A program made the translations under genes and the position numbers. The notes under the pieces were generated by a model, which was not told the origin of the DNA, ran no database searches, and worked only from the letters and a program-made list of their open reading frames with translations. From Candidatus Limivivens intestinipullorum (GTDB taxonomy: Bacteria > Bacillota > Clostridia > Lachnospirales > Lachnospiraceae), in the NCBI GenBank assembly GCA_018711185.1, contig DVIQ01000099.1:10380-74379 (forward strand): 64,000 nt of DNA. Direction: 5' to 3'. Shown piece by piece: positions 1,088 through 47,447 of this stretch (the stretch's first letter is position 1; each line of letters opens with the position of its first letter).

Positions 1088-2170
1088 ATGGAAATGACAT
1101 TGCGATGGTACGGATCGGCCTTTGACACAGTAAAGCTGTGGCAGATCCGGCAGATTCCGGGGGTGACAGGCGTTATCACAACCTTGTATGACACGGCCCC
1201 CGGAGAGGTGTGGAGCCGCGAGCGCATCCGGGCTCTGAAAGAAGAGGTGGAGGAGGCGGGACTGCGCATTTCCGGAATTGAGAGCGTGAATGTCCACGAT
1301 GCCATAAAGACGGGAGCCCCCCAGCGGGAGGAATACATCGATCACTATATCGAAACCCTGGAAAACCTGGGGAAAGAGGACATTCATCTGGTCTGCTATA
1401 ATTTCATGCCGGTTTTTGACTGGACCCGGACGGAGCTTGCAAGGGTGCGGCCGGATGGCTCCACGGTACTGGCCTATACCCAGGAGGCGGTGGACGCCCT
1501 GAATCCGGAGGACATGTTCCAGTCCATTTCCGGGGACATGAACGGCACGGTGATGCCGGGGTGGGAGCCGGAGCGGATGGCGAAGATCAAGGAATTGTTC
1601 GCCATGTACCGGGATATCGACGAGGAGAAGCTGTTTGAGAACCTGACGTATTTCCTGGAACGGATTATGCCCGTCTGCGACCGGTATGATATCAATATGG
1701 CGATTCACCCGGACGATCCTGCCTGGAGTGTGTTCGGCCTTCCGAGGATTATCATTAACAAAGAAAACATCCTGCGCCTTATGAAGGCAGTGGACAATCC
1801 CCACAACGGCGTCACCTTCTGCTCCGGCTCCTACGGGACGAATCTGGAAAACGATCTTCCGGATATGATCCGCTCCCTGAAGGGGAGGATCCATTTCGCT
1901 CATGTGCGGAACCTGAAATTCCACTCGCCCACAAATTTTGAGGAGTCCGCCCATCTTTCTTCGGACGGCACCTTTGACATGTATGAAATCATGAAAGCCT
2001 TGTATGACATCGGCTTTGACGGCCCCATCCGTCCCGACCACGGCCGGATGATCTGGGGAGAGGTGGCCATGCCGGGCTACGGGCTTTACGACAGAGCTCT
2101 GGGAGCCGCGTACTTAAACGGGCTCTGGGAGGCCATAGAAAAGGGGGAGAAGCGCCATGCGGTTAAATGA
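1088..2170 (+). CDS. uxuA: mannonate dehydratase
   Basis: MTLRWYG, ESVNVHDAIK, CYNFMPVFDWTRT, HPDDP, RPDHGR and GYGLYDRALG motifs; start taken at ATG 1088 after AAGGAAGG. Confidence 0.95.
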   Translation: MEMTLRWYGSAFDTVKLWQIRQIPGVTGVITTLYDTAPGEVWSRERIRALKEEVEEAGLRISGIESVNVHDAIKTGAPQREEYIDHYIETLENLGKEDIHLVCYNFMPVFDWTRTELARVRPDGSTVLAYTQEAVDALNPEDMFQSISGDMNGTVMPGWEPERMAKIKELFAMYRDIDEEKLFENLTYFLERIMPVCDRYDINMAIHPDDPAWSVFGLPRIIINKENILRLMKAVDNPHNGVTFCSGSYGTNLENDLPDMIRSLKGRIHFAHVRNLKFHSPTNFEESAHLSSDGTFDMYEIMKALYDIGFDGPIRPDHGRMIWGEVAMPGYGLYDRALGAAYLNGLWEAIEKGEKRHAVK

Positions 2171-3770
2171 GCAGGGATTAAAGGACCGGGCGGCCTGGGA
2201 GGAAAAGGGCTACGAGCTCCCGGCCTTTGACCGGAAAAAGGTGACAGAGAATACGAAAGCGGCGCCGCGCTGGATTCACTTCGGGGCCGGAAACATTTTC
2301 CGGGCTTTTCAGGCGAATGCGGCCCAGCGGCTTTTAAACGAAGGCGTCATAGATACGGGGCTTACGGTGGCCGAGGGCTATGACTATGAGATTATTGAGA
2401 AAATGAACCGTCCCCATGACGGATACAGTATCCTTGTGACTTTAAAGGCGGACGGGAAGCTTGAAAAGACCGTGGTGGGAAGCATTGTGGAATCCCTTGC
2501 CCTTGACCGGGAAAACACGGAAGATTTTTCCAGACTTACGGAAATCTTCTCCGGGGATTCCCTTCAGATGGCAAGCTTTACCATTACGGAAAAGGGCTAC
2601 AGCCTGACGGACGCCGGCGGGGCGCTGCTGCCGGACGTGGCGGCAGATATGGAAAAGGGGCCGAAAGCTGCCGGAAGTTATATCGGGAAGGTGGCTTCTC
2701 TTCTGTACATCCGCTATCTGGCAGGGGAAAAGCCCCTGGCTATGGTGAGCATGGACAACTGCTCTCACAACGGCACAAAGCTTTATAGCGCAATGGCGGC
2801 CTTCGCGGACGCCTGGGAGGAGAAGGGCCTGGCGGAAGCGGGCTTCGCGGCTTACGTGAAGGATTCCGGCAAGGTGTCTTTCCCCTGGACGATGATCGAT
2901 AAGATCACGCCCCGGCCCTCAAAAGAGGTGGAAGAGGTGCTAGCCAAAGATGGGGTGGAGGAGCTGGATCCGGTGATCACCAGAAAGAAAACGTACATCG
3001 CGCCCTTTGTAAACGCGGAGGAGTGCGAGTACCTGGTGATCGAGGACTGCTTTCCGGGAGGCCGGCCGCCCCTTGAACGGGCGGGCCTGATCTTTACGGA
3101 CCGCAAGACCGTGGATAAGGTGGAGAAAATGAAGGTCTGCACCTGCTTGAATCCCCTGCACACGGCTCTGGCTGTTTTTGGCTGCCTTCTGGGCTATGAT
3201 CTGATTTCCGGCGAGATGAAGGATACGGCTCTGCGAAAACTCGCCGAGGGGATCGGCTACCGGGAGGGACTGCCGGTTGTGGTGGATCCCGGCATCTTAA
3301 ATCCCAGGGAGTTCCTGGATACGGTTCTCAATGTGCGGATTCCCAATCCCTTTATGCCGGATACGCCCCAGCGGATTGCCACGGACACTTCCCAGAAGCT
3401 GGCTATCCGCTTTGGGGAAACCATCAAGGCCTATCAGAGAGATCCGGACAAGGACGTTTCCGAGCTTCGGCTGATTCCCCTGGTGTTTGCCGGATGGCTG
3501 CGCTATCTGATGGGCGTGGACGACAATGGAGAGCCCTTCGCGTTAAGCCCGGACCCCATGCTGGATACTCTGTGCCCGGTTCTGAGCCGGATTTCCCTTG
3601 GAAAAACAGAGGGAGCCGGGGAGCTTCTGCGTCCCATTTTGGAAAACGAAAATCTATTCGGCGTGAATCTCTATGAAGCCGGTCTGGCGGACCGGGTATG
3701 CGCGTACTTTGCCGAGCTTACGGCGGGCCGGGGCGCGGTGCGCAGGACGCTGGACAAATATACGGCTTAA
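2157..3770 (+). CDS. mannitol dehydrogenase family protein (D-mannonate oxidoreductase, UxuB-type)
   Basis: HFGAGNIFRAF, SFTITEKGY, SMDNCSHNG, MIDKITPRP and KVCTCLNPLHT motifs; overlaps the uxuA stop codon. Confidence 0.88.
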   Translation: MRLNEQGLKDRAAWEEKGYELPAFDRKKVTENTKAAPRWIHFGAGNIFRAFQANAAQRLLNEGVIDTGLTVAEGYDYEIIEKMNRPHDGYSILVTLKADGKLEKTVVGSIVESLALDRENTEDFSRLTEIFSGDSLQMASFTITEKGYSLTDAGGALLPDVAADMEKGPKAAGSYIGKVASLLYIRYLAGEKPLAMVSMDNCSHNGTKLYSAMAAFADAWEEKGLAEAGFAAYVKDSGKVSFPWTMIDKITPRPSKEVEEVLAKDGVEELDPVITRKKTYIAPFVNAEECEYLVIEDCFPGGRPPLERAGLIFTDRKTVDKVEKMKVCTCLNPLHTALAVFGCLLGYDLISGEMKDTALRKLAEGIGYREGLPVVVDPGILNPREFLDTVLNVRIPNPFMPDTPQRIATDTSQKLAIRFGETIKAYQRDPDKDVSELRLIPLVFAGWLRYLMGVDDNGEPFALSPDPMLDTLCPVLSRISLGKTEGAGELLRPILENENLFGVNLYEAGLADRVCAYFAELTAGRGAVRRTLDKYTA

Positions 3771-3785
3771 AGCATTAAGGCAGCG

Positions 3786-3814
3786 GCAACGGTTTGGCAG
3801 GGCTGAACGGTTAT
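3786..3814. repeat. 29-bp palindromic repeat, copy 2
   Basis: GCAACGGTTTGGCAGGGCTGAACGGTTAT. Confidence 0.75.
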
Positions 3815-3843
3815 CCGCGGCGTAAGACAGGAGGACTGAGACA

Positions 3844-4233
3844 ATGAAATTTACAGAGCGAAAACGGCTTTTATTTTTCGGACTGCCCTGGACTTTTACG
3901 AAATACACGATCACCGAGGAACTGATTACGGTAAACTCCGGGATTATTCACGCCAGGGAGAACGACTGCTATATGTATAAGGTGGTGGACACCAGACTGT
4001 GCGTAAGCCTTCTGGAGCGGCTGTTCGGCCTGGGGACCATTCACTGTTTTGGCGGGGATACCACCGATCCGGTGCTCACCATCGCCCACGTAAAAAACGC
4101 CAAGAAAATCAAGGACTTTATTCTGGAAGCCTCAGAGGAGGAGCGCAGAAAGAAGCGGACTCTGCGCTCCCAGGATATCGGCCGGGGCGGCGTGGCACCG
4201 GACTTCCAGGAGCCGGTGGAGGACGACTTCTAA
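3844..4233 (+). CDS. bacterial PH domain-containing protein
   Basis: YTITEELITVNSG...ERLFGLGTI pattern typical of bPH_2 proteins; RBS GGAGG. Confidence 0.7.
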   Translation: MKFTERKRLLFFGLPWTFTKYTITEELITVNSGIIHARENDCYMYKVVDTRLCVSLLERLFGLGTIHCFGGDTTDPVLTIAHVKNAKKIKDFILEASEEERRKKRTLRSQDIGRGGVAPDFQEPVEDDF

Positions 4234-35467: not shown

Positions 35468-35953
35468 TCAGAAGCCTGCTTTTGACAGAATATTTTCAGC
35501 GGTCTCCGTGTCGTCGCAGACGCAGAGCACCACATAGTTTCCTGAGGTTCTCAGAATAGCGGCTTCCAGCTTCTGTGTCTCCGTGGCGTTGTAGGAAGAG
35601 TAGAGGGTGGTCTGATTGTCCACGCGGGTCTGGAGGAGGTCCTGAACCTCAGAGACATAGGAGCTGTCCTTGCACTGGATCACAGCGACTTCGCAGGCCG
35701 ACGCGGCGGTGCTCATGTAGACAGAGCTTGCCTCGATCTGATCCATATCCACAAAATAGGTGGACGCCACGATGTCCGCGGATACTTCATTTAAGGTATC
35801 GCTGGTGACCGTTTCCTGGGCAAGCTGCTTTGCCAGCTCAGAGGGGGCCACGGTGACCTCACCGGAGGATGTGTTTGTGCCGCTGCTGCAGCCTGTCAGC
35901 GCCAGAAGGCAGATAAGCAGGACTGCCGTAAAAATACAAAGTTTCTTTCTCAT
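35468..35953 (-). CDS. DUF4358-like lipoprotein
   Basis: Lipobox LTGC; EVAVIQCKD, RVDNQ and GNYVVLCV pattern. Confidence 0.65.
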   Translation of the reverse strand: MRKKLCIFTAVLLICLLALTGCSSGTNTSSGEVTVAPSELAKQLAQETVTSDTLNEVSADIVASTYFVDMDQIEASSVYMSTAASACEVAVIQCKDSSYVSEVQDLLQTRVDNQTTLYSSYNATETQKLEAAILRTSGNYVVLCVCDDTETAENILSKAGF

Positions 35954-36879
35954 GTTTCTTCTCCTTCTTGATCTTGTGGTACATAATGATTTTTCAGATA
36001 GTTCAGCCAGATCTCACAGTATTGCGGATACATGTGGACGCCGTCGCTGGTGGCTCCCTCAATCAGGGAGTGATTTCCATTGGAAAGCACTTCGTTGATA
36101 TTCAGGAAATGGTAGCCATTTTCTTCACAAAGCTCAAGGATTACGCGATTCATGGTGTCCACATTTTCGTTGTTAATGTAGTCGCCAGTGGTTACCTTGT
36201 CCTCTTCCACATAGGGAACGGACATCACGTAAATCAGAGCGTTGGGAGACAATTTTTTCAGTTCGCCCAGGACAATGCGGTAGTTTTCCTTAAATTCACT
36301 CCAGTCATACGTTCCCAGCTCGTTTGTACCCAGCAGAACATAAAACTTTTCGCAGTCGGTTCCGTAGAGGGCCTGGAATACCAGGATATTTCCGGAGGGG
36401 CTGCTGATAAATGGCGTCTGGAAGATGTTTGTCGTATCCATGCCGACGCCGGTCAGGAACGTGCCCTCTGTGATACCGGAATTAATCCGGAATCCTTCCA
36501 TCCTCGAATCGCCGATGAAGGTAGCGTCAGAAAAGTAGGAATCATCCACAGGAACAGCCTGTTCAGGCACAATGGCGGGGCTTTCCAGGGGCGGCCCTGT
36601 CTGGGGAGCTTCCGTGGCAGCCTCAGAGGAAATCTGGGTATCTGCCTCAGAGGAAACCTCTGTAACCGGAGCAGCTTCGGTTTCCGTTTCCGCCGTAGTT
36701 TCTTCCTCGGATGGAAACAGTTCGCTTAACTGGGCATTAAAGCGTTCCTGGAAGCCCTCCCGTGAAAAAATGCTGATTAACATTCTTCCCTCAAAGATAA
36801 TCAGCACTGAAATAATCAGAATCACTATATGAAGAAGGCGGCCGGGCTTAGGCGCCTTCCTTTTCTTTTGTACAGTCAT
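35950..36879 (-). CDS. membrane-anchored SGNH/GDSL hydrolase or acetyltransferase
   Basis: TM anchor, acidic linker, FIGDSR (block I), LGTNE (block III), DGVH (block V); start at MTVQ after GGGAGA. Confidence 0.8.
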   Translation of the reverse strand: MTVQKKRKAPKPGRLLHIVILIISVLIIFEGRMLISIFSREGFQERFNAQLSELFPSEEETTAETETEAAPVTEVSSEADTQISSEAATEAPQTGPPLESPAIVPEQAVPVDDSYFSDATFIGDSRMEGFRINSGITEGTFLTGVGMDTTNIFQTPFISSPSGNILVFQALYGTDCEKFYVLLGTNELGTYDWSEFKENYRIVLGELKKLSPNALIYVMSVPYVEEDKVTTGDYINNENVDTMNRVILELCEENGYHFLNINEVLSNGNHSLIEGATSDGVHMYPQYCEIWLNYLKNHYVPQDQEGEET

Positions 36880-37017
36880 AGATTCTCCCATACCGTCGAA
36901 TTTTTGAATTGCCTTTTCTTCTCCTCTATTATATAATGAATCCGTTAATTGTAAATAGTTTTTTCGCAATGTAATGAAAACTTAAAAAAATTTAAGAAAG
37001 GAACTTTTGTAGCAGTT

Positions 37018-38439
37018 ATGGTTTTTTCCAGTCTGTTGTTTCTGTTCCGCTTTCTTCCGGCTGTGTTTCTTCTTTATTATGTAGCACCCAGAAGATTGCG
37101 AAACGTCATTCTGTTTCTGTTCAGCCTCTTTTTTTATGCCTGGGGCGAGCCAAAGTATGTGTTTTTAATGCTCTTTTCGATTACCATGGATTTCTTTGTG
37201 GGCCGGCAAATTGATAAGAGCAAGCAAAATGGAAACATGAGAAGGGCCAGAGGCTTTCTTATGATTTCCATTGTGGTAAATTTGAGCATTCTCTGCTTCT
37301 TTAAGTACGCGGATTTTATCATTGGTTCCATAAACAGCGTTACCGGGTTTTCGATTCCCCTTCTGGGGATTCCTCTGCCCATCGGTATCTCCTTTTTTAC
37401 ATTCCAGACCATGTCCTATACCATCGACGTCTACAAAGGCGCCACGAAGGTTCAGAAAAACTGGATCAAGTATGGGACGTATGTGTCCATGTTTCCCCAG
37501 CTTATCGCGGGGCCCATTGTTCAGTATAAGACCATTGCAAAGCAGATGGAGACGAGAAAGGAGAATGTCCGCGATTTTTCCGCAGGCATTCATCGTTTTA
37601 TGATCGGTCTGGGGAAAAAGGTCCTTCTGGCAAACAACATCGGACTTTTGTGCGATGCGGTTATGGCTTTGGATATTGCCACGGTGCCGGTGCTGACAGC
37701 CTGGCTGGGAGCGGTGGCCTTTACCTTCCAGCTTTATTTTGATTTTTCCGCTTACTCGGATATGGCCATTGGCCTTGGAAAAATGTTCGGCTTCTATTTC
37801 CTTGAGAACTTTAATTATCCGTACATAGCAAAGAGCATTACCGAGTTCTGGCATCGGTGGCATATTTCACTGAGCTCCTGGTTTAAGGAATACGTCTACA
37901 TACCCCTGGGAGGAAACCGCCGGGGACTTCCAAAGCAGGTTCGGAATATCCTGATTGTGTGGCTTCTGACAGGCATCTGGCATGGAGCCAGCTGGAACTA
38001 TGTGCTCTGGGGCGTTTACTACGGTATTCTCCTGATTCTGGAGAAGTTTTTATTCCGCCATATTCTCAAACGGCTGCCGGGGATTGTCCAGAATGTTTAT
38101 ACGCTGTTTTTTGTAATTCTGGGATGGGTATTGTTTAAATGTGAGGATCTCGGGTACTGCGTATCCTATTTAAAGGCTATGTTTGGAGGTTTCGGCCAGG
38201 AAATTTTAGGAAATCAGACCATGTTTTATCTGGGGAATTACGGCGTGCTGCTGATTCTTCTGTTTTTCGGAAGCACCATGCTGCCCAAGAAAATCGGCCT
38301 TGCCATTCAGGGAAAGCTTGGGGAAGGCTCCTGGCTTCTTCTGCTGCTGAAATGTATTTTTTACGCCGGAATCTTCGTGGTTTCCGTTGCCTATCTGGTG
38401 GATGCCACGTATAACCCCTTCTTATATTTCCGGTTCTGA
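37018..38439 (+). CDS. MBOAT family O-acyltransferase (AlgI/PatA-like)
   Basis: LPIGISFFTFQ, FPQLIAGPI, DFSAYSDMAIG, ENFNYPY, FWHRWHISLS and GIWHGASW motifs. Confidence 0.92.
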   Translation: MVFSSLLFLFRFLPAVFLLYYVAPRRLRNVILFLFSLFFYAWGEPKYVFLMLFSITMDFFVGRQIDKSKQNGNMRRARGFLMISIVVNLSILCFFKYADFIIGSINSVTGFSIPLLGIPLPIGISFFTFQTMSYTIDVYKGATKVQKNWIKYGTYVSMFPQLIAGPIVQYKTIAKQMETRKENVRDFSAGIHRFMIGLGKKVLLANNIGLLCDAVMALDIATVPVLTAWLGAVAFTFQLYFDFSAYSDMAIGLGKMFGFYFLENFNYPYIAKSITEFWHRWHISLSSWFKEYVYIPLGGNRRGLPKQVRNILIVWLLTGIWHGASWNYVLWGVYYGILLILEKFLFRHILKRLPGIVQNVYTLFFVILGWVLFKCEDLGYCVSYLKAMFGGFGQEILGNQTMFYLGNYGVLLILLFFGSTMLPKKIGLAIQGKLGEGSWLLLLLKCIFYAGIFVVSVAYLVDATYNPFLYFRF

Positions 38440-38447
38440 TAAAGGAG

Positions 38448-39593
38448 ATGCCAATGAAAAAAGTACAAAATTGGATTGTGACAATCCTGTTTCTGGCAGT
38501 CATCTTTGGGACGACTGCTTTAACGATCCTGCATAAGCCCCAGGATTTTTCGGAAAGAGAAAACCGGGCCCTGGCTCAGCTTCCGATCCCTACGGTGGAC
38601 AGCGTATTCTCCGGGGATTTTGCTTCGGACTATGAGACATATCTGAGCGACCAGTTTGTGGGGCGCGACCAGTGGATCAGCCTGAAGACGCGGGTGGAGC
38701 GCATGGCAGGAAAGCAGGAGATTAAGGATGTGTATTATGCCCGGGATAACTATCTGATCGAATCTCATAACGGAACCTTTGAAACCGACCAGGCAAAGAC
38801 AAATATCCGTCTGCTGGCTCAGTTTGCGGAAATCTACCGGTCTCAGTTTCCGGAGGAGCACATGACGGTGATGGTGGTTCCAAACGCGGTGGAGGTTTTG
38901 GATTATCTGCTGCCGCTGTACGCGCCGGACAGCGGAGAACGGGCCTATCTGGATGCCATTGAAGCGGCGCTTCCGGAGGGTGTATGGTTTGAGAGCGAGC
39001 CGGTGCTGAAGGATCACGTGGAGGATCAGCTCTATTATCGGACGGATCACCACTGGACTACCCTGGCGGCGTTCTATGTGTATGAGGCCTGGGCGGATTC
39101 CCTGGGACTTTCCACAGCGGGACTTTCCACGTATACCAGGGAGACGCTGACGACGGATTTCCTGGGAACCATTGAATCCAAGGTAGGTGGCACGGTGACC
39201 CCGGATTCTATCCAGCGTTTTGTGCCGGCGAATCCGGCGGCTTATACGGTAAATTACAACAATGGGCAGGATACCGGAACGGATCTTTACCATATGGACA
39301 TGCTGGAGACCAAGGACAAGTACGCGGTATTTTTTGGCGGGAACCAGGGACTGGTTCAGGTAAACGTTGACAACGGCCAGGCGCGGAAGCTTCTGGTGGT
39401 GAAGGATTCCTATGCCAACTGCTTCGTGCCTTTTGCCTTTGAGAACTTCGGACAGGTGGATATGGTGGATGTGCGCTACTATAACGGCAGCCTGTCGGAA
39501 CTGATCGGTACGGGAGAGTATACGGATCTGCTGTTCCTTTACAACGCTTCCGGATTCGCGGAGGATGTGAGCCTGCAAAGGCTGCTGAATTAA
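38448..39593 (+). CDS. DHHW family protein (AlgJ/PatB-like O-acetyltransferase partner)
   Basis: YYRTDHHWT and LVVKDSYANCF motifs; N-terminal TM anchor. Confidence 0.85.
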   Translation: MPMKKVQNWIVTILFLAVIFGTTALTILHKPQDFSERENRALAQLPIPTVDSVFSGDFASDYETYLSDQFVGRDQWISLKTRVERMAGKQEIKDVYYARDNYLIESHNGTFETDQAKTNIRLLAQFAEIYRSQFPEEHMTVMVVPNAVEVLDYLLPLYAPDSGERAYLDAIEAALPEGVWFESEPVLKDHVEDQLYYRTDHHWTTLAAFYVYEAWADSLGLSTAGLSTYTRETLTTDFLGTIESKVGGTVTPDSIQRFVPANPAAYTVNYNNGQDTGTDLYHMDMLETKDKYAVFFGGNQGLVQVNVDNGQARKLLVVKDSYANCFVPFAFENFGQVDMVDVRYYNGSLSELIGTGEYTDLLFLYNASGFAEDVSLQRLLN

Positions 39594-39600
39594 AAAAGAG

Positions 39601-39629
39601 GTAACCGTTCAGCCCTGCTGAACGGTTAC
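39601..39629. repeat. 29-bp palindromic repeat, copy 6 (perfect 13-3-13)
   Basis: GTAACCGTTCAGC-CCT-GCTGAACGGTTAC between convergent genes. Confidence 0.85.
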
Positions 39630-39712: not shown

Positions 39713-40657
39713 TCAGCCGAGAAGCTCCGGAATCTCATCCAGATACCGGCGCAGGGCGTCCTGCCAGTGGGGCAGGGGCGTAAAGCCGCTGGCGGCAAGT
39801 TTGCTCTTGTCCAGCCGGCTGTTAAAGGGGCGCCTGGCCTTGGAAACGCCGTATTCCTCGGTGGTAACCGGAAGGACGTTTACCTTGCTGTAGACATCCT
39901 GGCCCCGGGCTGCGGCCTGGCGGAAGATTTCCTTTGTGAAGTCGTACCAGCTTATGAATCCGCCCTCGTTGGTGGCGTGATAATAGCCGTATTTCTCCGT
40001 CTGGATCATGTCAACCAGAAGACGGGCCAGATCCAGGGTGTAGGTGGGGGTGCCGATCTGGTCGTTTACCACTCGGATGGTGTCGTGGGTTTTCCCAAGG
40101 CGAAGCATGGTTTTGATGAAGTTGCTGCCGTTTTTGCCAAAGACCCAGGCGATGCGCACGATAAAGTATTTTTCCAGAAGCTCGCTTACGGCAAGCTCGC
40201 CTTCCAGCTTGGTCTGTCCGTAGACATTCAGGGGCTTGTAGTCCTTGCAGTCCGGTTCCCATGGGGTCTCTCCCTGGCCGTCGAAGACGTAATCCGTGCT
40301 CAGATATACCATCTTGCAGTCAAGCTCCTTGCAGGCGGCGGCGATGTTACGGGTGCCGTCGGCGTTGATCCGGCGCACGGCAGCGATCTTGTCCGTATCC
40401 TCTGCCAGATCCACAGCGGTCCAGGCGGCGCAGTGAACCACCGCGTCCGGAGCGGTTTCTTTCAGAACCCGGTTTACACAGTCCGCGTCCGTGATGTCTA
40501 TGGGCACATAGGGCATAGTGGTCACGGCGCTTCCGTCCGCAATGCCGCTGTACACTTCTTTTAAATCCGAACCCACGCCCGCGATACCCCGGGCAGCCAG
40601 TTCGTTCATAACGTCGTGGCCAAGCTGGCCGGCGACTCCGGTAACTAAAACCTTCAT
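39713..40657 (-). CDS. rmlD: dTDP-4-dehydrorhamnose reductase
   Basis: LVTGVAGQLG, HCAAWTAVD, STDYVFDG, YGQTKLEGE and DQIGTPT motifs. Confidence 0.93.
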   Translation of the reverse strand: MKVLVTGVAGQLGHDVMNELAARGIAGVGSDLKEVYSGIADGSAVTTMPYVPIDITDADCVNRVLKETAPDAVVHCAAWTAVDLAEDTDKIAAVRRINADGTRNIAAACKELDCKMVYLSTDYVFDGQGETPWEPDCKDYKPLNVYGQTKLEGELAVSELLEKYFIVRIAWVFGKNGSNFIKTMLRLGKTHDTIRVVNDQIGTPTYTLDLARLLVDMIQTEKYGYYHATNEGGFISWYDFTKEIFRQAAARGQDVYSKVNVLPVTTEEYGVSKARRPFNSRLDKSKLAASGFTPLPHWQDALRRYLDEIPELLG

Positions 40658-40669
40658 ATCAGCGCCTCC

Positions 40670-41689
40670 TTAGCGGTTTCCGTACATTTTTTCATAGTAA
40701 TTCTGATATTCACCGGAAATGATGGTTTCCCACCACTCTCTGTTATCCAGATACCAGCGGATGGTTTTCTTGATGCCGTCCTCGAACTTTGTCTCCGGGA
40801 GCCAGCCAAGCTCATTGTGGATCTTCGTGGGATCGATGGCGTAGCGCATGTCGTGGCCTTTGCGGTCTGTGACATAGGTGATCAGGCTCTCCGGCTTGCC
40901 AAGCTCGCGGCAGATGATCTTCACAATATCGATGTTGCGCATTTCGTTGTGTCCGCCGATATTGTAAACCTCGCCCTCACGGCCTTTGTGGATAATCAGG
41001 TCGATGGCCTTGCAGTGATCCTCAACGTACAGCCAGTCGCGGACGTTTTCGCCTTTTCCGTAAACGGGAAGGGGTTTGTCGTTCAGGGCATTGGCGATCA
41101 TCAGAGGGATCAGCTTTTCCGGGAAATGGTAGGGACCATAGTTGTTGGAGCAGCGGCTGATGGTCACCGGCAGCCCGTAGGTTCTGTGGTAGGCCAGCAC
41201 CAGAAGATCCGCTGAGGCCTTGGAGGCGCTGTAGGGGCTGCTGGTGTGGATGGGAGTTTCCTCCGTGAAAAACAGGTCGGGACGGTCCAAGGGCAGATCG
41301 CCGTACACCTCGTCCGTGGAAACCTGATGGTATCTCTGGATTCCATATTTGCGGCAGGCGTCCATCAAAACAGCGGTTCCCTTGATGTTCGTGTCCAGGA
41401 AAACCTCCGGGTTTTCGATGGAACGGTCCACATGGCTCTCCGCGGCGAAGTTTACCACCATATCCGGGAGTTCCTCCTCAAAGAGACGGTAAACGGCCTC
41501 CCGGTCTGTGATGTTTTCCTTTACGAAGCGGAAGTTCGGATTGTCCATGACCGGAGCCAGGGTGGAAAGATTACCCGCGTAAGTCAGGCAGTCCAGACAG
41601 ATAATCCGGTAATCCGGATATTTTTTCAACATGTGGAAAATAAAGTTGCTTCCGATAAAACCGGCGCCGCCGGTAACAATAATCTTCAT
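40670..41689 (-). CDS. rmlB: dTDP-glucose 4,6-dehydratase
   Basis: MKIIVTGGAGFIGSNF, FAAESHVDRS, STDEVYG and YSASK motifs; real start at 41689. Confidence 0.95.
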   Translation of the reverse strand: MKIIVTGGAGFIGSNFIFHMLKKYPDYRIICLDCLTYAGNLSTLAPVMDNPNFRFVKENITDREAVYRLFEEELPDMVVNFAAESHVDRSIENPEVFLDTNIKGTAVLMDACRKYGIQRYHQVSTDEVYGDLPLDRPDLFFTEETPIHTSSPYSASKASADLLVLAYHRTYGLPVTISRCSNNYGPYHFPEKLIPLMIANALNDKPLPVYGKGENVRDWLYVEDHCKAIDLIIHKGREGEVYNIGGHNEMRNIDIVKIICRELGKPESLITYVTDRKGHDMRYAIDPTKIHNELGWLPETKFEDGIKKTIRWYLDNREWWETIISGEYQNYYEKMYGNR

Positions 41690-41911
41690 ACTCTTATACG
41701 CTCTCTTTCCGGCGCCGGAAAATGCTCCCGGCGCCTGTGTGTTTTTTGATTCCCGTAAGCAACGAGCCAAGCGGGCATGCTTGTATGTCCATTTGGCGGT
41801 GCTGTGTGCCGGTGGCACACGTTTCGCACCAACCGAAGCGTAGACCAAATACCCCGCAGCTCTGCTGCGCTGCAAGTTTGATGCCCCGCAGCTTGCTGCG
41901 GGCCTTCTGGC
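41690..41911. repeat. hairpin-rich intergenic insertion with two CCCCGCAGCT(C)TGCTGCG palindromes
   Basis: Copies at 41852-41869 and 41884-41902, plus GTGTGCCGGTGGCACAC; this is an unusually long rmlA-rmlB spacer. Confidence 0.55.
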
Positions 41912-42811
41912 TTATCCGTGAAGTACGTCCAGATATTTTCCGTCCAGCACATCCTTTAAATACTGGCCATACTGATTCTTTTTCAGAACCTCGTAAACTT
42001 TCAGCACATCCTCCCGGCTGATCCAGCCGTTCAGATAGGCGATTTCCTCCAGGCAGGCGATTTTGCGGTGCTGGTGGGTCTCCATGGTTTTCACAAAGTT
42101 CGTGGCGTCCACCAGGCTTTCATGGGTACCGGTGTCCAGCCAGGTAAAGCCTTGTCCCAAAAGCTCTACATTCAGCCGCCCCGCCTCAAGATAAATCCGG
42201 TTCAGGTCCGTGATTTCCAGTTCGCCTCTCGCGCTGGGCTTTAAGTTTCTGGCGTATTCTACGACCTGGTTGTCGTAGAAGTACAGTCCGGTTACGCAGT
42301 AATTGCTCTTGGGCTGCTTCGGCTTCTCCTCAATGGAGACGGCGCGGCCTTCCTTGTCAAACTCTACAATGCCAAACCGCTCCGGATCGTCCACATAGTA
42401 GCCGAACACCGTGGCGCCTTTGCCGTTTTCGGCATTCTCCACGGCTGCCCGCAGGCGTTTGGAAAGACCGTGGCCGGCGAAGATATTGTCGCCGAGAATC
42501 ATGGCCACCGTGTCGTCTCCGATGAAATCCGCGCCGATGGTGAAGGCCTGGGCCAAACCGTCGGGGCTTGGCTGCACGGCATAGGAAAGCTCCACGCCGA
42601 ACTGGTGGCCGTCCTTTAAAAGCTCCTGGAACCTGGGGGTATCCTGGGGTGTGGAAATGATTAAAATTTCCCGGATGCCGGCTGTCATCAGCACGGACAT
42701 GGGGTAGTAGATCATGGGCTTGTCATAGATGGGCAGAAGCTGCTTGGACGTCACCATGGTCAGAGGGTAAAGCCTTGTGCCGGAACCTCCGGCAAGAATA
42801 ATCCCTTTCAT
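41912..42811 (-). CDS. rmlA: glucose-1-phosphate thymidylyltransferase
   Basis: [42 protein letters not shown] and WLDTGT motifs. Confidence 0.96.
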
Positions 42812-42945
42812 TTGTTCGAATCTCCTTTGCGTTTTTGCCGCGGACCAGCGCTGTTTTAAACCATCTCCCCGGAATCCGGGGCGCTTTCGCGGCTGGCCGG
42901 TTACGGCGTCTCTTATCACGTCTGCACTTTTCGGTCTATGTCGGT

Positions 42946-42976
42946 ATTATACAGGGTGACGTTACGTCACCTGCAA
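42946..42976 (-). promoter_or_regulatory. MerR-type promoter/operator upstream of rmlA
   Basis: Minus strand reads TTGCAG-gtgacgtaacgtcaccctg (19 bp)-TATAAT; dyad GGTGACGT-N-ACGTCACC at 42955-42971. Confidence 0.8.
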
Positions 42977-42992
42977 GGGTTTTTTTAAATTT

Positions 42993-44180
42993 CTAAGAGA
43001 TTTTTTGGCAGAGAAAAATGCCGGCCTCCTTGGTGATGGAGAAGCCGTTTTTGGTTTTGCTCTCCACGAAGGCTCGGAAATCTTTATAGCGGTCCAGAAG
43101 GTACGTATTCTGATTTCCGTGACAGGAGAGGATGTACTCCACCAGAGGCTCCGGGTTGTTCACCAGAAGGCGGTCCGGGTAGCGCAGGCTCTGAATGGAG
43201 GAGAAGAAGGGCTCCAGAAGCCCGCGGCCGTTTTCCAGGCCAAAGCGCTCATAAAGCTTTTCGGCGGCAAGGACGATCCGGTCGTCAAATTCCTGGACAA
43301 GGCGGCTGATTTCCTTCATATGACCCGCTCCGTAGGTGCTGCACAGGAAACGGCCCCCGGACTTTAAAACCCGGCGGACCTGTCCGAAAACGCCGGGAAG
43401 ATCTTCACAGTAAAACAAGAGATGGTTGGCGATCACCAGATCAAAGGAGGCATCCGGGAAGGGAATCCGTGCGCAGTCAAATTCCAGAAAGGAGAAACGG
43501 GAATCGGAAGGGCCGATGGCCCGCTTGGCGTCTCTTAGCATGCCCTCGGAGATGTCGGAGAGGGTGATGGAAACGCCCTGGGGAAGCCGCTCCCTGTTTT
43601 CCGTCCAGAGAGCGCCGTTGCCGCAGCCAAGCTCGAGAACGCGCATGCCGGGCCGGATCCGGCACTGTTCATAGATCCAGGGAAACCAGCCCTGGGGATT
43701 CGTGGAATAGAGGGCGTGGAGGTTAATGCGGGCAGAAATATTGGAGGCATTCTGGTACTGGGTTTTCAGGCTCTCCTCCATGCCCGTCAGGTGGATCAGA
43801 TCCAGCATCTGGCTCCAGTTCACCTGCTTTTCGGTCTGGAGGGCCGCGGCCGTCTCTTCGATGGCCTTTTCCACAAGCTGCATCTGCTCAATCCGGTCAC
43901 GGACGAGTTTGAGCTGGAGCTTCAGGGAGCGCCGCATCCTTTGAGGGTCCGGCTCTCCGATGGTCATGGCCCGGATATCTTCAAGGGAAAAACCCAGATA
44001 TTTCAGGAGCAGGATCTGCTGGAGCCTGGCGAAATCTCCGTCTGTGTAGAAACGCGCGCCGGCGGGGCTTACATAGGCGGGCTTTAAAAGATTCTGTTTG
44101 TCATAGTACCGGATGGTACGGATGGACACATGGGCCATCCGGGCGAATTCTCCGGAGGTGTAGTAGCCTGGAAGTTTCAT
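42993..44180 (-). CDS. MerR-family regulator fused to a class I SAM-dependent methyltransferase domain
   Basis: N-terminal YTSGEFARMAHVSIRTIRYYDKQNLLKP and LGFSLEDIR; C-terminal VLELGCGNG, FDLVIANHLLFY and VLKSGG; start at MKLPG. Confidence 0.88.
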   Translation of the reverse strand: MKLPGYYTSGEFARMAHVSIRTIRYYDKQNLLKPAYVSPAGARFYTDGDFARLQQILLLKYLGFSLEDIRAMTIGEPDPQRMRRSLKLQLKLVRDRIEQMQLVEKAIEETAAALQTEKQVNWSQMLDLIHLTGMEESLKTQYQNASNISARINLHALYSTNPQGWFPWIYEQCRIRPGMRVLELGCGNGALWTENRERLPQGVSITLSDISEGMLRDAKRAIGPSDSRFSFLEFDCARIPFPDASFDLVIANHLLFYCEDLPGVFGQVRRVLKSGGRFLCSTYGAGHMKEISRLVQEFDDRIVLAAEKLYERFGLENGRGLLEPFFSSIQSLRYPDRLLVNNPEPLVEYILSCHGNQNTYLLDRYKDFRAFVESKTKNGFSITKEAGIFLCQKIS

Positions 44181-44205
44181 GGCGGACGTCCTTTCTTTTT
44201 CTGCC

Positions 44206-44234
44206 ATTATACTGAAAAAACGAAGATGTGGCAA
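44206..44234 (-). promoter_or_regulatory. putative sigma-A promoter of the MerR-methyltransferase gene
   Basis: TTGCCA, 17 bp, TATAAT on the minus strand, with no dyad. Confidence 0.6.
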
Positions 44235-44439
44235 CCGGTTCGACACACAAGCGTGTTTTTGGACAAAAGGATAAGAGTGTCGGAATTTGTAACAAAGTGC
44301 GCGAACTAGGGCAAAAGTGGGACATATATCGTTCTCTGACCGGAGAGATATCCCAGAGGATTTGATATAATAAATAAAATGATGAACAGGCTCGCGCACA
44401 TTGGGCGAACCGTGGAAAATTAAGGAAGGGGAGATTTTT

Positions 44440-47055
44440 ATGTCTGCATACGACAAAAAGATTAACGAGGTTATAACTGCGCTCCAGACGGATCCGGCAA
44501 AGGGACTGACCGGGAATCAGGTTTCGGAAAGACGCGCGAAATACGGCGAAAACAAGCTGCGGGAAAAAAAGAAAAAAACAAATCTTCAGCGGTTTGCGGA
44601 GCAGTTTAAGGACGCGATGATTTTAATTCTGATTGTTGCGGCGGCGGTTTCTTTTGTTATCGCTTGTACCCAGGGGGAACCACAGGAGTTTTTTGAGCCG
44701 ATTCTGATTCTGCTGATTGTTTTGCTGAACGCGGTCATGGGCGTGATACAGGAGAGCAAGGCGGAAAAGGCGCTGGATGCTTTAAAGGGTTTGTCCGCGC
44801 CCCACGCGCGGGTGATCCGGGACGGGGAAGAAAAGATCATTGACGCGGCAGAACTGGTTCCCGGCGATGTGATCCGCCTGGAGGCCGGAGACTTCATCCC
44901 GGCCGACGCCAGGCTTGTGCGCAGCGTCAGCTTAAAGAGCGAGGAGTCCGCCCTGACCGGAGAATCCGTTCCTTCGGAGAAGGACGCTGACGCGGCAGTG
45001 GATGAGAAAGCCCCTCTGGGCGACCGCGTAAATATGGTATTTTCCGGATGCAGCGTCACCTATGGCACCGCGGCGGCGATTGTCACCGCTACAGGCATGG
45101 ACACGGAAATGGGTAAGATCGCGAATCTGCTGGAAAATGAGAAGGAAGAGCAGACGCCTCTGCAGAAGAAGCTCGCCCAGCTTGGAAAATACCTGGGCGC
45201 TTTGGCTCTGGCAGCCTGCGCGATTATTTTTATTGTAGGCGTGGCTAACGGGATTCCTGCCCTGGAAATTTTTATGACTGCGGTATCCCTGGCGGTTTCC
45301 GCGATACCGGAGGGGCTTCCGGCCATTGTCACCATCGTTTTGTCCATCGGCGTGCAGCGGATGGTCAAAAAGAACGCGATTATCCGCCGCCTGCCCGCGG
45401 TGGAAACCCTGGGAAGCGCTTCGGTGATCTGTTCGGATAAGACCGGAACCCTGACCCAGAACCGCATGACGCTGGTAAAGGCCTGGACAGACGGAAAGGA
45501 AGACTGCGAGAACATTGGAACGCAGAACTCTCAGGAAATGCAAAGGCTGCTTTGCTGTGCTGCCCTTTGCTGCGACGGCAGCGTGGTCTTTCATGGAACC
45601 GAGGAGCAGCATATCGGGGATCCCACGGAAACGGCCATTGTGCTGGCGGCCCATAAAAACGGTATGCCGAAGGATGAGCTGAACAGACAGTTTCCCCGGC
45701 TGGCAGAGATTCCCTTTGATTCGGACCGGAAACTGATGACCACGATAAACCGCATGGACGGAAAAAACAGGGTGATTGTCAAGGGCGCTTTTGACGTCAT
45801 GGCTTCCCGGTGCGTGGCGGGAGACCTGAAAAAAGCCGCCGAAATCAATGAGGAGATGAGCAGAAACGCCCTGCGGGTGCTGGCGGTGGGGTATAAAGAA
45901 ATTCCTGAGGTTCCCGAACGGGCTCTGCCGGAGGAAATGGAAACGGGCCTGACCTTACTGGGACTTCTGGGAATGATCGATCCGCCAAGACCGGAAGCGA
46001 AGGCGGCGGTGGAAACTTGCCGGAGAGCCGGCATCAAGCCGGTGATGATTACCGGAGACCACGTTGTGACGGCTTCGGCTATCGCGAGGGAACTGGGCAT
46101 TCTGCAGGAAGGCGATAAAGCGGTTACAGGTCCGGAACTGGACGCCATGACGGACACGGAGCTGGACGGGCAGGTGGAGCGCATTTCCGTTTACGCCCGC
46201 GTATCGCCGGAGAACAAAATCCGGATTGTCAAAGCCTGGCAGCGGAAAGGCCAGGTGGTCTCCATGACTGGCGACGGCGTGAACGACGCTCCGGCACTGA
46301 AAGCTGCCGATATCGGCTGCGCCATGGGAATCACCGGAACGGATGTGGCAAAGGGAGCGGCGGATATGACGCTTACCGACGACAATTTCGCCACGATTGT
46401 GGACGCGGTCCGGGAAGGGCGGGGAATTTACGCGAACATCAAAAAGGTGGTGGGCTTTCTTCTGGGGACGAACATCGGCGAGGTGATCACGGTGTTTGTG
46501 GCTATGCTTTTGTGGCATAAGTCGCCGCTGATGTCCATGCAGCTGTTGTGGATCAACCTTGTGACCGACAGCCTTCCCGCCATTGCACTTGGCGTAGAGC
46601 CGGTGGAGAAGGATATTATGACACAGAAGCCAAAGCCCAAAGACGAAGGCCTCTTCGCCCATGGATTCGGCGTGCGCATTGTCCTGCAGGGAGCGATGTT
46701 CGGGATTCTCGCCCTGGCAGCGTTCTATTTTGGCGAAAGCGCCACGGGGCAGGACGCCGGAGGGCAGACCCTGGCGTTTATGGTGCTTGCCCTTTCTCAG
46801 ATTGTGCAGGCGTTTAATATGCGTTCAGAGCATTCCCTGTTTCAAATCGGCGTATTTACAAACGCCAGGCTGAACCAGGCGGCTCTTCTTTCCATCGTTC
46901 TGGTGCTGCTGGTAATGTTCAGTCCCTTGTCCATTCTGTTTGGGCTGATCCGGCTTCCGTGGAACCTTTATCTGGCGGGGGTGGGATTGATTCTCGTTCC
47001 GCTGCTTGTGATGGAAGTGTCCAAGGCGGCGGGGCTGATCCGGCATCATCACTGA
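44440..47055 (+). CDS. cation-translocating P-type ATPase (type IIA, Ca2+-like)
   Basis: LTGES, AIPEGLP, CSDKTGTLT, MITGDH, TGDGVNDAPALK and QLLWINLVTD motifs. Confidence 0.93.
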   Translation: MSAYDKKINEVITALQTDPAKGLTGNQVSERRAKYGENKLREKKKKTNLQRFAEQFKDAMILILIVAAAVSFVIACTQGEPQEFFEPILILLIVLLNAVMGVIQESKAEKALDALKGLSAPHARVIRDGEEKIIDAAELVPGDVIRLEAGDFIPADARLVRSVSLKSEESALTGESVPSEKDADAAVDEKAPLGDRVNMVFSGCSVTYGTAAAIVTATGMDTEMGKIANLLENEKEEQTPLQKKLAQLGKYLGALALAACAIIFIVGVANGIPALEIFMTAVSLAVSAIPEGLPAIVTIVLSIGVQRMVKKNAIIRRLPAVETLGSASVICSDKTGTLTQNRMTLVKAWTDGKEDCENIGTQNSQEMQRLLCCAALCCDGSVVFHGTEEQHIGDPTETAIVLAAHKNGMPKDELNRQFPRLAEIPFDSDRKLMTTINRMDGKNRVIVKGAFDVMASRCVAGDLKKAAEINEEMSRNALRVLAVGYKEIPEVPERALPEEMETGLTLLGLLGMIDPPRPEAKAAVETCRRAGIKPVMITGDHVVTASAIARELGILQEGDKAVTGPELDAMTDTELDGQVERISVYARVSPENKIRIVKAWQRKGQVVSMTGDGVNDAPALKAADIGCAMGITGTDVAKGAADMTLTDDNFATIVDAVREGRGIYANIKKVVGFLLGTNIGEVITVFVAMLLWHKSPLMSMQLLWINLVTDSLPAIALGVEPVEKDIMTQKPKPKDEGLFAHGFGVRIVLQGAMFGILALAAFYFGESATGQDAGGQTLAFMVLALSQIVQAFNMRSEHSLFQIGVFTNARLNQAALLSIVLVLLVMFSPLSILFGLIRLPWNLYLAGVGLILVPLLVMEVSKAAGLIRHHH

Positions 47056-47099
47056 CGCGCATAGAAAGCGAAAGCTGCTGCAAACGGCTGTGAGCAGTA

Positions 47100-47447
47100 A
47101 TGACGAAGGGATTGTCTGGAAAAACGACGCGGCGGATCCGCCGGGTTCTGGAGTATATCCGGCTTCATGTTCATACGAACGTCACCAGATCAGAGGCCGC
47201 GGGGCTTATTAACCTGAATGAGGAATATTTTTCCAAGGTATTTAAGACGCATACGGGTATGTCCTTTAAAAACTATGTGCTGTCGGAAAAAATGAAAGCG
47301 GCCATGAATCTTCTGGCAAACACAAATCTTTCCGTCGGACTGATCGCTTCGAAGGTCGGCTTTGATAATTTTTCGCATTTTTCAAAAACATTTAAAAAGT
47401 ATACGGATTTATCCCCACAGGAGTACCGCAGAATCTACCAGAAATGA
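47100..47447 (+). pseudogene. AraC C-terminal HTH fragment lacking a sensor domain
   Basis: 115 aa with YFSKVFK and GFDNFSHFSKTFKKYT; starts 45 bp after the ATPase stop with no clear RBS. Confidence 0.6.

Follow-up and report, generated by a model that had tools for sequence, protein, structure and literature searches.

The mechanism of BmrR-type activators of the MerR family is that of a dimer seated on a dyad inside a 19-bp promoter spacer, with activation by distortion of the DNA (PMC7722741; review, PMC9909328). TipAL (Streptomyces), AlbA (Klebsiella and others) and Mta (Bacillus subtilis) resemble the system described below in their helix-turn-helix (HTH) and in the 19-nt spacer of their promoters. 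MerR activators are known for sensing metals, oxidants and drugs and for switching on detoxification or efflux; at the locus reported here, DNA twisting appears instead to gate a core envelope-precursor pathway. The locus lies within a stretch of 64,000 nucleotides (hereafter, the window) of contig DVIQ01000099.1 from Candidatus Limivivens intestinipullorum (Lachnospiraceae), in which a gene encoding a MerR-type HTH fused to a class I S-adenosylmethionine (SAM) methyltransferase is followed by a promoter, P_rml, directed at the dTDP-rhamnose genes rmlA-rmlB-rmlD. Judged from its sequence, P_rml is a conserved MerR-type promoter with its operator, and the adjacent fusion protein is most likely the dedicated activator of the rml operon. 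We consider it probable that a dimer of this protein sits on the dyad and activates rmlA-rmlB-rmlD by under-twisting the spacer, the signal being received through the methyltransferase-like domain. The anatomy of the sequence, the domains of the protein, their conservation and the linkage of the genes were observed directly; the binding of the fusion protein to the dyad, activation rather than repression, and the route of coupling are what we infer.

The elements of the promoter, in window positions, are as follows.

42971 to 42976, minus strand: -35 hexamer TTGCAG, with three of six matches to TTGACA
42970 to 42952, minus strand: spacer of exactly 19 nt between -35 and -10
42946 to 42951, minus strand: -10 hexamer TATAAT
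42955 to 42971, minus strand: dyad GGTGACGTAACGTCACC, a perfect 17-bp palindrome and putative operator
42980 to 42986, minus strand: A-tract AAAAAAA, just 5' of the -35
42812 to 42939, minus strand: predicted leader of about 128 nt ahead of rmlA, from a transcription start site (TSS) predicted near 42939 by the position of the -10

An earlier note, made from the letters of the window, had described TTGCAG, a 19-nt spacer and TATAAT on the minus strand with a perfect dyad touching the -35, placed 16 nt past the stop of the MerR fusion gene and aimed at rmlA; all these elements lie where it had put them. The dyad is an 8-1-8 palindrome, GGTGACGT-A-ACGTCACC, the first G of which is also the last base of the -35, and, given a TSS near 42939 (7 nt 3' of the -10), it covers -32 to -16 and is centred at -24. 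The stop codon TAG of the fusion gene occupies 42995-42993, leaving 16 nt (42992-42977) up to the -35, and the promoter is oriented toward rmlA-rmlB-rmlD, with the ATG of rmlA at 42811. A dyad between -35 and -10 within an over-long spacer of 19-20 bp is the arrangement of a MerR promoter, here present with 19 nt, and the weak -35 together with the long spacer suggests that transcription depends on an activator. Among relatives the TTG of the -35 is invariant and the hexamer reads either TTGAAG or TTGCAG. The A-tract recurs in the consensus as AAAAAA in at least 90% of 74 unique promoters of relatives and is possibly UP-element-like in function. With up to two mismatches the dyad pattern is expected by chance 0.07 times per window, and the genome scan suggested in the earlier note found it once in the 3.77-Mb genome; its conservation across species is a stronger argument against chance than this expectation value. 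The leader of 128 nt was considered as a possible riboswitch or other RNA element, and this was rejected, as Rfam gave no match in positions 40000-46000 at E-values up to 1; neither the length nor the sequence of the rmlA leader is conserved among relatives, which also counts against an RNA element.

The gene preceding the promoter, and the parts of its product, are given below.

42993 to 44180, minus strand: MerR-HTH::class I SAM-methyltransferase fusion gene, 395 amino acids (winged HTH, residues 7-72; coiled-coil helix, 79-115; lid helices, 122-158; Rossmann methyltransferase, 165-395)

The reading of this protein as a MerR head joined to a SAM-methyltransferase fold, also made in the earlier note, was borne out by Pfam domains, invariant SAM motifs and Foldseek matches alike. 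In the N-terminal part, Pfam reports MerR_1 (PF13411) at 7.5e-17 (61.6 bits, cut-off 21.6) and PF00376 at 2.1e-11, with MerR-DNA-bind (PF09278) spanning residues 51-109; by phmmer, the PDB sequences nearest to the HTH are BmrR, TipAN and MtaN (E about 2e-14), BmrR being the best match of the N-terminal 125 residues (E 1.7e-14). The C-terminal part matches Methyltransf_11 (PF08241) at 1.9e-20, as well as Methyltransf_25 and 31. An AlphaFold 2 model built from 33 homologues, with a predicted local distance difference test (pLDDT) score of 84, comprises a winged HTH, a long helix at 79-115, two conserved helices at 122-158 and, from there up to residue 395, a methyltransferase of the Rossmann type; the coiled-coil dimerisation helix at 79-115 is predicted as a single helix with local pLDDT of 60-75. 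The protein has the winged HTH and, by prediction, the long coiled-coil helix of the MerR family. With residues from about 110 to 395, Foldseek returned many methyltransferases at probability 1.00, the best matches, at E-values of 5e-14 to 1e-12, being small-molecule methyltransferases: TmtA/GtmA, MitM, AtmM/RebM, phosphoethanolamine N-methyltransferases and TleD. Each alignment takes in some 250-300 columns, that of the top match 286, with template modelling scores, normalised to the target, of up to 0.69. From these alignment lengths we infer that the helices following the coiled coil are the counterpart of a methyltransferase lid.

In an alignment of 33 sequences, down to 36% identity, G185 and G187 of motif I (LELGCGNG) are invariant, as is D209, the ribose-binding acidic residue after strand 2; motif I and the acidic residue closing strand 2 are those of the class I SAM-methyltransferase fold, which has no universal catalytic residues. 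In the same alignment A251, H253, Y257, S352, G355 and N356 are invariant, and a loop S-C-H-G-N-Q at 352-357 and a lid motif QYQNA-NIS-RI-LH are conserved. The HTH contact residues T22, R24, Y26, D27, R43 and Y45 are invariant too, being as conserved as the methyltransferase part, which suggests that both halves of the protein are functional. Judging by the conserved residues of the methyltransferase part, it is very likely that the protein still binds SAM and that selection acts on a specific pocket for an acceptor or ligand; the invariance of the SAM-site and putative acceptor-pocket residues across the family argues that ligand binding matters. The protein family comprises at least 5,630 clusters at 90% identity, which carry generic names such as 'MerR family transcriptional regulator' or 'methyltransferase domain-containing protein'. 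Stand-alone methyltransferase homologues of about 260-270 amino acids, devoid of the HTH and sharing the lid motif QY.N..N...R..LH, were found at three loci (L012, L014 and L015); their starts fall near the position that the almost invariant M134 has in the fusion protein, an arrangement reminiscent of the TipAS and AlbAS short forms. One of them (L015, contig 9 of genome G053) lies between galK-like and galE-galT-like open reading frames (ORFs), as far as N-terminal sequences tell, and this neighbourhood hints at a sugar or sugar-nucleotide as a possible ligand.

Conservation of the arrangement was followed in a scan of one genome per species, which gave 207 relatives of the fusion protein, the best 80 of which were analysed. 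The dyad promoter accompanies the fusion gene in 70 of these 80 species loci, standing directly before rmlA in 57 and before rmlB in 13, the latter having no adjacent rmlA; at one further locus the promoter falls at a contig end. All 70 rml-adjacent promoters have the 19-nt spacer and the conserved form CTTG[A/C]AGGTGAC-N5-GTCACCTTTTATA[A/C]T, or a variant of it with one or two substitutions. The consensus of 74 unique promoters is AAAAAA..CTTGAAGGTGAC-N5-GTCACCTTTTATAAT with a 19-nt spacer, and the half-sites GGTGAC/GTCACC are conserved as sequence over 86 unique sites. The order of fusion gene, dyad promoter and rmlA is kept in relatives of the same genus (L003-L005), and other layouts separate the promoter from the end of the fusion gene. 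Cultivable, non-pathogenic strains with the module include Blautia schinkii DSM 10518 (L025) and Blautia wexlerae (L028). In two loci (L010, from genome G016, and L042) the genes are divergent and the dyad promoter lies between them, aimed at rmlA, and in six others (L072, L074, L084, L093, L097 and L103) unrelated genes of 0.5-2.2 kb stand between the fusion gene and rml; in these the dyad stays immediately 5' of rmlA and not behind the fusion gene. The earlier note had allowed that in relatives the dyad might precede an unrelated gene, which would make rml a recent passenger. This is ruled out, as in the 80 species loci the dyad promoter always stands before rmlA or rmlB and never before an unrelated gene, and fusion genes lacking rml lack the dyad as well. 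Co-variation of the recognition helix with the half-site variants GTGAC and ATGAC was looked for, and by eye there was no clean correlation, the DNA-reading residues being nearly invariant. The gap between the fusion stop and P_rml is a recurrent insertion point for accessory genes (L072, L093, L097 and L103), which by their N-terminal sequences resemble genes for a Phd-like antitoxin, a nucleotidyltransferase and AAA-type ATPases; over all six loci with insertions, a membrane protein is also among the products so judged.

The association was also approached from the opposite side, by scanning metagenome contigs for nothing but the promoter pattern, no use being made of protein sequences. Eighty loci were kept, which are redundant (63 distinct contexts) and, being relatives, not independent, and the counts are to be read as consistency and not as probability. 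The fusion gene lies upstream on the same strand in 57 of the 58 loci with at least 1350 bp of upstream flank, ending within 350 bp of the promoter in 51 of those 57. The first downstream gene is rmlA (52) or rmlB (18) in 70 of the 71 loci with at least 400 bp of downstream sequence. The module is common in the scanned contigs, many of which are human-gut assemblies. One metagenome locus (L170) has the fusion gene and the promoter with no recognisable rml gene in 1.3 kb downstream.

The specificity of the operator was considered against the other MerR promoters of the family Lachnospiraceae. A pattern of the geometry alone, TTG-N4-TGAC-N5-GTCA-N5-TAnnnT, matched in 102 of 401 Lachnospiraceae genomes, the reversed pattern used as control giving 5 matches in those genomes, and at least five flank classes of such promoters recur in the family. 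The rml class is TTGAAGGTGAC..GTCACCTTT, and others are TTGACTCTGAC..GTCATAG, TTGACTTTGAC..GTCAA and TTGCTTGTGAC..GTCATGA; a further class, TTGACAGTGAC..GTCACCCTGTATAAT, has the GTGAC/GTCACC half-sites in common with the rml class. In the genome of the window the sole other match to the geometry precedes another MerR gene on contig 87. This gene and a second paralog are placed as follows.

Contig 87, about 46944-47207 (locus L020, here C87): MerR paralog with its own 19-nt-spacer promoter, dyad TTGACTCTGACGCTGTGTCATAGTTTATAAT
Contig 84, about 69045-69320 (locus L017, here C84): MerR paralog with its own 19-nt-spacer promoter, dyad TTGCTCATAACGCCGCGTCATATACTATACT

C84 is the closest HTH paralog (phmmer E 3e-23 against the N-terminal 115 amino acids of the fusion protein), and the recognition helices of the two proteins are similar. 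Both C84 and C87 look like self-regulated units in the style of TipA. As their dyads lie at their own genes, the rule of an operator beside its regulator holds within this genome, and on this ground we assign the rml operator to the fusion protein. The pattern indicates that the TGAC core is a family trait, that specificity resides in the flanks and that each operator stands beside its regulator. A wider regulon of the fusion protein in its own genome was looked for and rejected, the dyad being unique and the sole other geometry match being the promoter of a different MerR paralog. Among 25 genomes scored for both the fusion protein and the promoter, only the fusion-positive G016 has an rml-class promoter, besides the source genome G000; two have fusion homologues at 47-58% identity without the promoter, and 22 have neither. 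In a genome of another family of the same order (G053), the gene of a 37%-identical homologue (L011) is itself preceded by a 19-nt-spacer promoter containing ATGACGTAACGTAAG, which ties the protein family to this type of dyad independently of rml. At this locus (about 1400-4158) the homologue is followed, after a gap of 177 bp, by ORFs that in their N-terminal sequences are AdaA-like (Zn-finger methyl acceptor) and AlkA-like, a neighbourhood that may hint at a link to alkylation stress.

Several observations weigh against the fusion protein as the dedicated activator. In nine of the 80 species loci (within 3 kb), and likewise in L006-L008, both rml and the dyad are absent from the surroundings of the fusion gene, and at the metagenome locus L147 the promoter and rmlA are present with no fusion gene within 9 kb upstream. 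The genome has 11 MerR_1 matches and about nine MerR genes besides the fusion gene, and at least two of these, C84 and C87, have promoters with a related T[GA]AC-N5-GTCA core, making cross-binding possible. Finally, an operator at the fusion gene's own promoter, such as TipA, AlbA and Mta have, is missing. The earlier note had called this promoter an ordinary 17-bp one free of a dyad, and so it proved: the 260 bp that precede the fusion gene hold no palindrome of at least 6 bp, and the predicted site is the following.

44206 to 44234, minus strand: promoter-like site of the regulator, TTGCCA-17 nt-TATAAT, with 11 of 12 consensus matches (predicted)

On the balance of these data, the mechanism we favour would run as follows. 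P_rml would belong to the MerR-type sigma-A promoters (BmrR/TipA/Mta/AlbA class), and the fusion dimer would occupy its GGTGAC-N5-GTCACC dyad from -32 to -16. When active, the protein would kink and under-twist the 19-nt spacer, aligning the -35 and the -10 for RNA polymerase (RNAP), and the outcome would be expression of rmlA-rmlB-rmlD, by which cell-wall and surface glycans are supplied with dTDP-rhamnose. It is through the methyltransferase-like domain that the signal would enter, with SAM, S-adenosylhomocysteine (SAH) or a small methyl acceptor as candidates, the SAM motifs and the modelled fold being consistent with a sensor of SAM/SAH or of a methyl acceptor. The lid helices (122-158) adjoin the coiled coil in the model, and closure of the lid over SAM/SAH and/or an acceptor could in this way reach the DNA-binding heads. 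The terminator scan found no terminator between the fusion gene and P_rml in the window, and some basal expression of rml may come from transcripts that start at the 17-nt-spacer promoter of the regulator and read through; such read-through would not be essential, given the divergent and separated layouts in relatives.

Two further roles were weighed as additions to this mechanism, neither of which we would expect to hold. The protein might be a bifunctional enzyme and regulator, its methyltransferase domain binding SAM and methylating its own inducer or an intermediate of the wall or sugar pathway, and thereby forming a self-resetting switch; we regard this as rather unlikely. If true, dTDP-rhamnose supply and rhamnan synthesis in dominant gut Lachnospiraceae would depend on methyl-donor status or on an envelope metabolite, MerR activators would gain a new effector logic, and the immunologically relevant glycans of gut commensals a new point of control. 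The other is that in the tandem layout the palindrome plays a partial double role as terminator and operator, which is conceivable though doubtful. In favour of termination, the dyad lies 16 nt past the stop codon and is preceded by an A-tract, its RNA hairpin has a predicted energy of -13.4 kcal/mol (-14.4 for the family consensus), and in the family consensus the stem is followed by UUUUAUAAU and could terminate.

Of the explanations that would replace the favoured mechanism, one is that a different MerR paralog binds the dyad, the fusion protein being mainly an enzyme with a metabolic link to rml, for example in methylating a rhamnose-containing product. The number of other MerR genes, the TGAC-N5-GTCA core common to several Lachnospiraceae promoter classes and the recognition helix of C84 all lend themselves to this explanation, as do a methyltransferase domain that looks catalytically intact, judging by its residues and model, and the existence of the HTH-less homologues. 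We nevertheless find it improbable, since C84 and C87 each have a distinct dyad at their own gene, an enzyme-only role would have no need of the invariant HTH, and the fusion gene accompanies the dyad in 57 of 58 loci found by promoter.

Little credence is likewise given to the proposal that the fusion protein binds the dyad without being gated by a ligand, as a constitutive activator, or as a repressor or roadblock to read-through, with the methyltransferase part serving as an enzyme or a dimerisation scaffold. It has a precedent in AlbA and TipAL, which are reported to activate without ligand (AlbA preprint), and the lack of a terminator before P_rml in the window would permit read-through or a roadblock; against it, SAM-binding and putative acceptor-pocket residues are invariant, and the same promoter is kept in divergent and separated layouts where read-through is impossible. 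The weakest alternative, that the palindrome is simply the intrinsic terminator of the fusion gene and the hexamers incidental, is very improbable in spite of the hairpin, since in the window the stem is followed by CUGUAUAAU with no U-run and drew no call in the terminator scan, in the divergent loci the dyad does not lie downstream of any gene, at the loci with insertions it remains before rml and not behind the fusion gene, TTG, TAnnnT and the 19-nt spacing are present in 70 of 70 rml-adjacent loci, and the stem is conserved as sequence, with single-sided changes that break pairs and an inner pair broken in 33 of 86 sites.

The target operon of the fusion protein, as we read the locus, consists of the following features, the gene calls being made at scores beyond the NCBIfam equivalog cut-offs.

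41912 to 42811, minus strand: rmlA, glucose-1-phosphate thymidylyltransferase (TIGR01207, 485 bits, cut-off 361)
40670 to 41692, minus strand: rmlB, dTDP-glucose 4,6-dehydratase (TIGR01181, 497 bits, cut-off 365)
39713 to 40657, minus strand: rmlD, dTDP-4-dehydrorhamnose reductase (TIGR01214, 298 bits, cut-off 224)
39601 to 39629, minus strand: terminator-like hairpin closing the operon, a 13-bp stem followed by a T-run

No rmlC ORF is present between rmlA and the operon terminator, and a crude motif scan (D.RG.F), restricted to the 64-kb window, found none there either. The gap of 220 bp between rmlA and rmlB (41693-41911) holds a weak terminator-like hairpin at 41876-41853. Convergent to the rml genes are those for an MBOAT acyltransferase (37018-38439), a DHHW/AlgX-like SGNH protein (38448-39593) and a GDSL-family protein (35950-36969); together, these genes (35950-39593) look like a surface-polymer O-acylation set beside the rhamnose genes. 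On the other side, a P-type cation ATPase of 884 amino acids is encoded divergently from the fusion gene (44401-47055, plus strand); what lies upstream of the fusion gene varies in relatives, and the ATPase is accordingly not part of the module. A rhamnose-rich wall polysaccharide is known in the Lachnospiraceae from Ruminococcus gnavus, whose inflammatory glucorhamnan has rhamnose genes expressed only during growth (PMC6601261). With a promoter, an operator and a candidate regulator defined, there is a direct handle on the control of rhamnose-rich glycans, and the regulator together with the 31-bp promoter makes a compact, portable set of parts for finding the ligand by reporter screening.

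The earlier note knew of no described circuit of this kind, and our search agrees with it: neither a MerR-methyltransferase regulator nor MerR control of rml was found in the literature searched, which included a MerR review (PMC9909328) and a MerR site-correlation study and had most subscription journals outside its coverage. That review, searched for the term, makes no mention of an enzyme-fold sensor of this kind.

Among known systems, the operator geometry of P_rml is that of the AlbA-RNAP complex, with a palindrome from the last base of the -35 that spans -32 to -16 and is centred at -24 (AlbA preprint). The motif obtained for AlbA by SELEX, ACNCTNACG, contains a T-N-A-C-G part resembling the inner half-site T-G-A-C-G of P_rml, and the stand-alone copies of the fusion's ligand domain in other genomes recall TipAS and AlbAS. 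The members of the TipA class (TipAL, AlbA, Mta and SkgA), however, have a C-terminal TipAS-type domain, whereas the C-terminal 270 residues of the fusion protein form a class I methyltransferase with no TipAS-like match. The class also has an autoregulatory operator, which is absent from the fusion gene's own promoter, although the distant homologue at L011 has one, and its targets are the regulator itself or an efflux pump, where here a housekeeping sugar-nucleotide pathway is concerned. The fusion protein is a member of the MerR family, but its C-terminal methyltransferase and operator-less own promoter put it outside the TipA class proper.

The small-molecule methyltransferases nearest in fold, namely the gliotoxin thiol methyltransferases TmtA/GtmA, MitM, AtmM/RebM and the phosphoethanolamine N-methyltransferases, resemble the fusion protein in motif I, in the acidic residue that follows strand 2 and in the lid helices; they have no DNA-binding domain, and at identities of only 14-21% no substrate can be transferred from them. 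Transcription factors with enzyme-fold sensors include MocR/GabR with an aminotransferase fold, Ada with its methyl-acceptor domains, BirA and NadR. They embody the same concept of a DNA-binding head joined to an enzyme-type domain, while their DNA-binding families and mechanisms differ, and none of them is known as a MerR-type activator that distorts the spacer and carries a SAM-methyltransferase domain. With BmrR of Bacillus subtilis the expected mechanism is the same, but there a GyrI-like drug-binding domain is coupled to an efflux target, and here a methyltransferase fold to rmlABD; what appears to be new at this locus is the effector domain and the class of target for a MerR activator.

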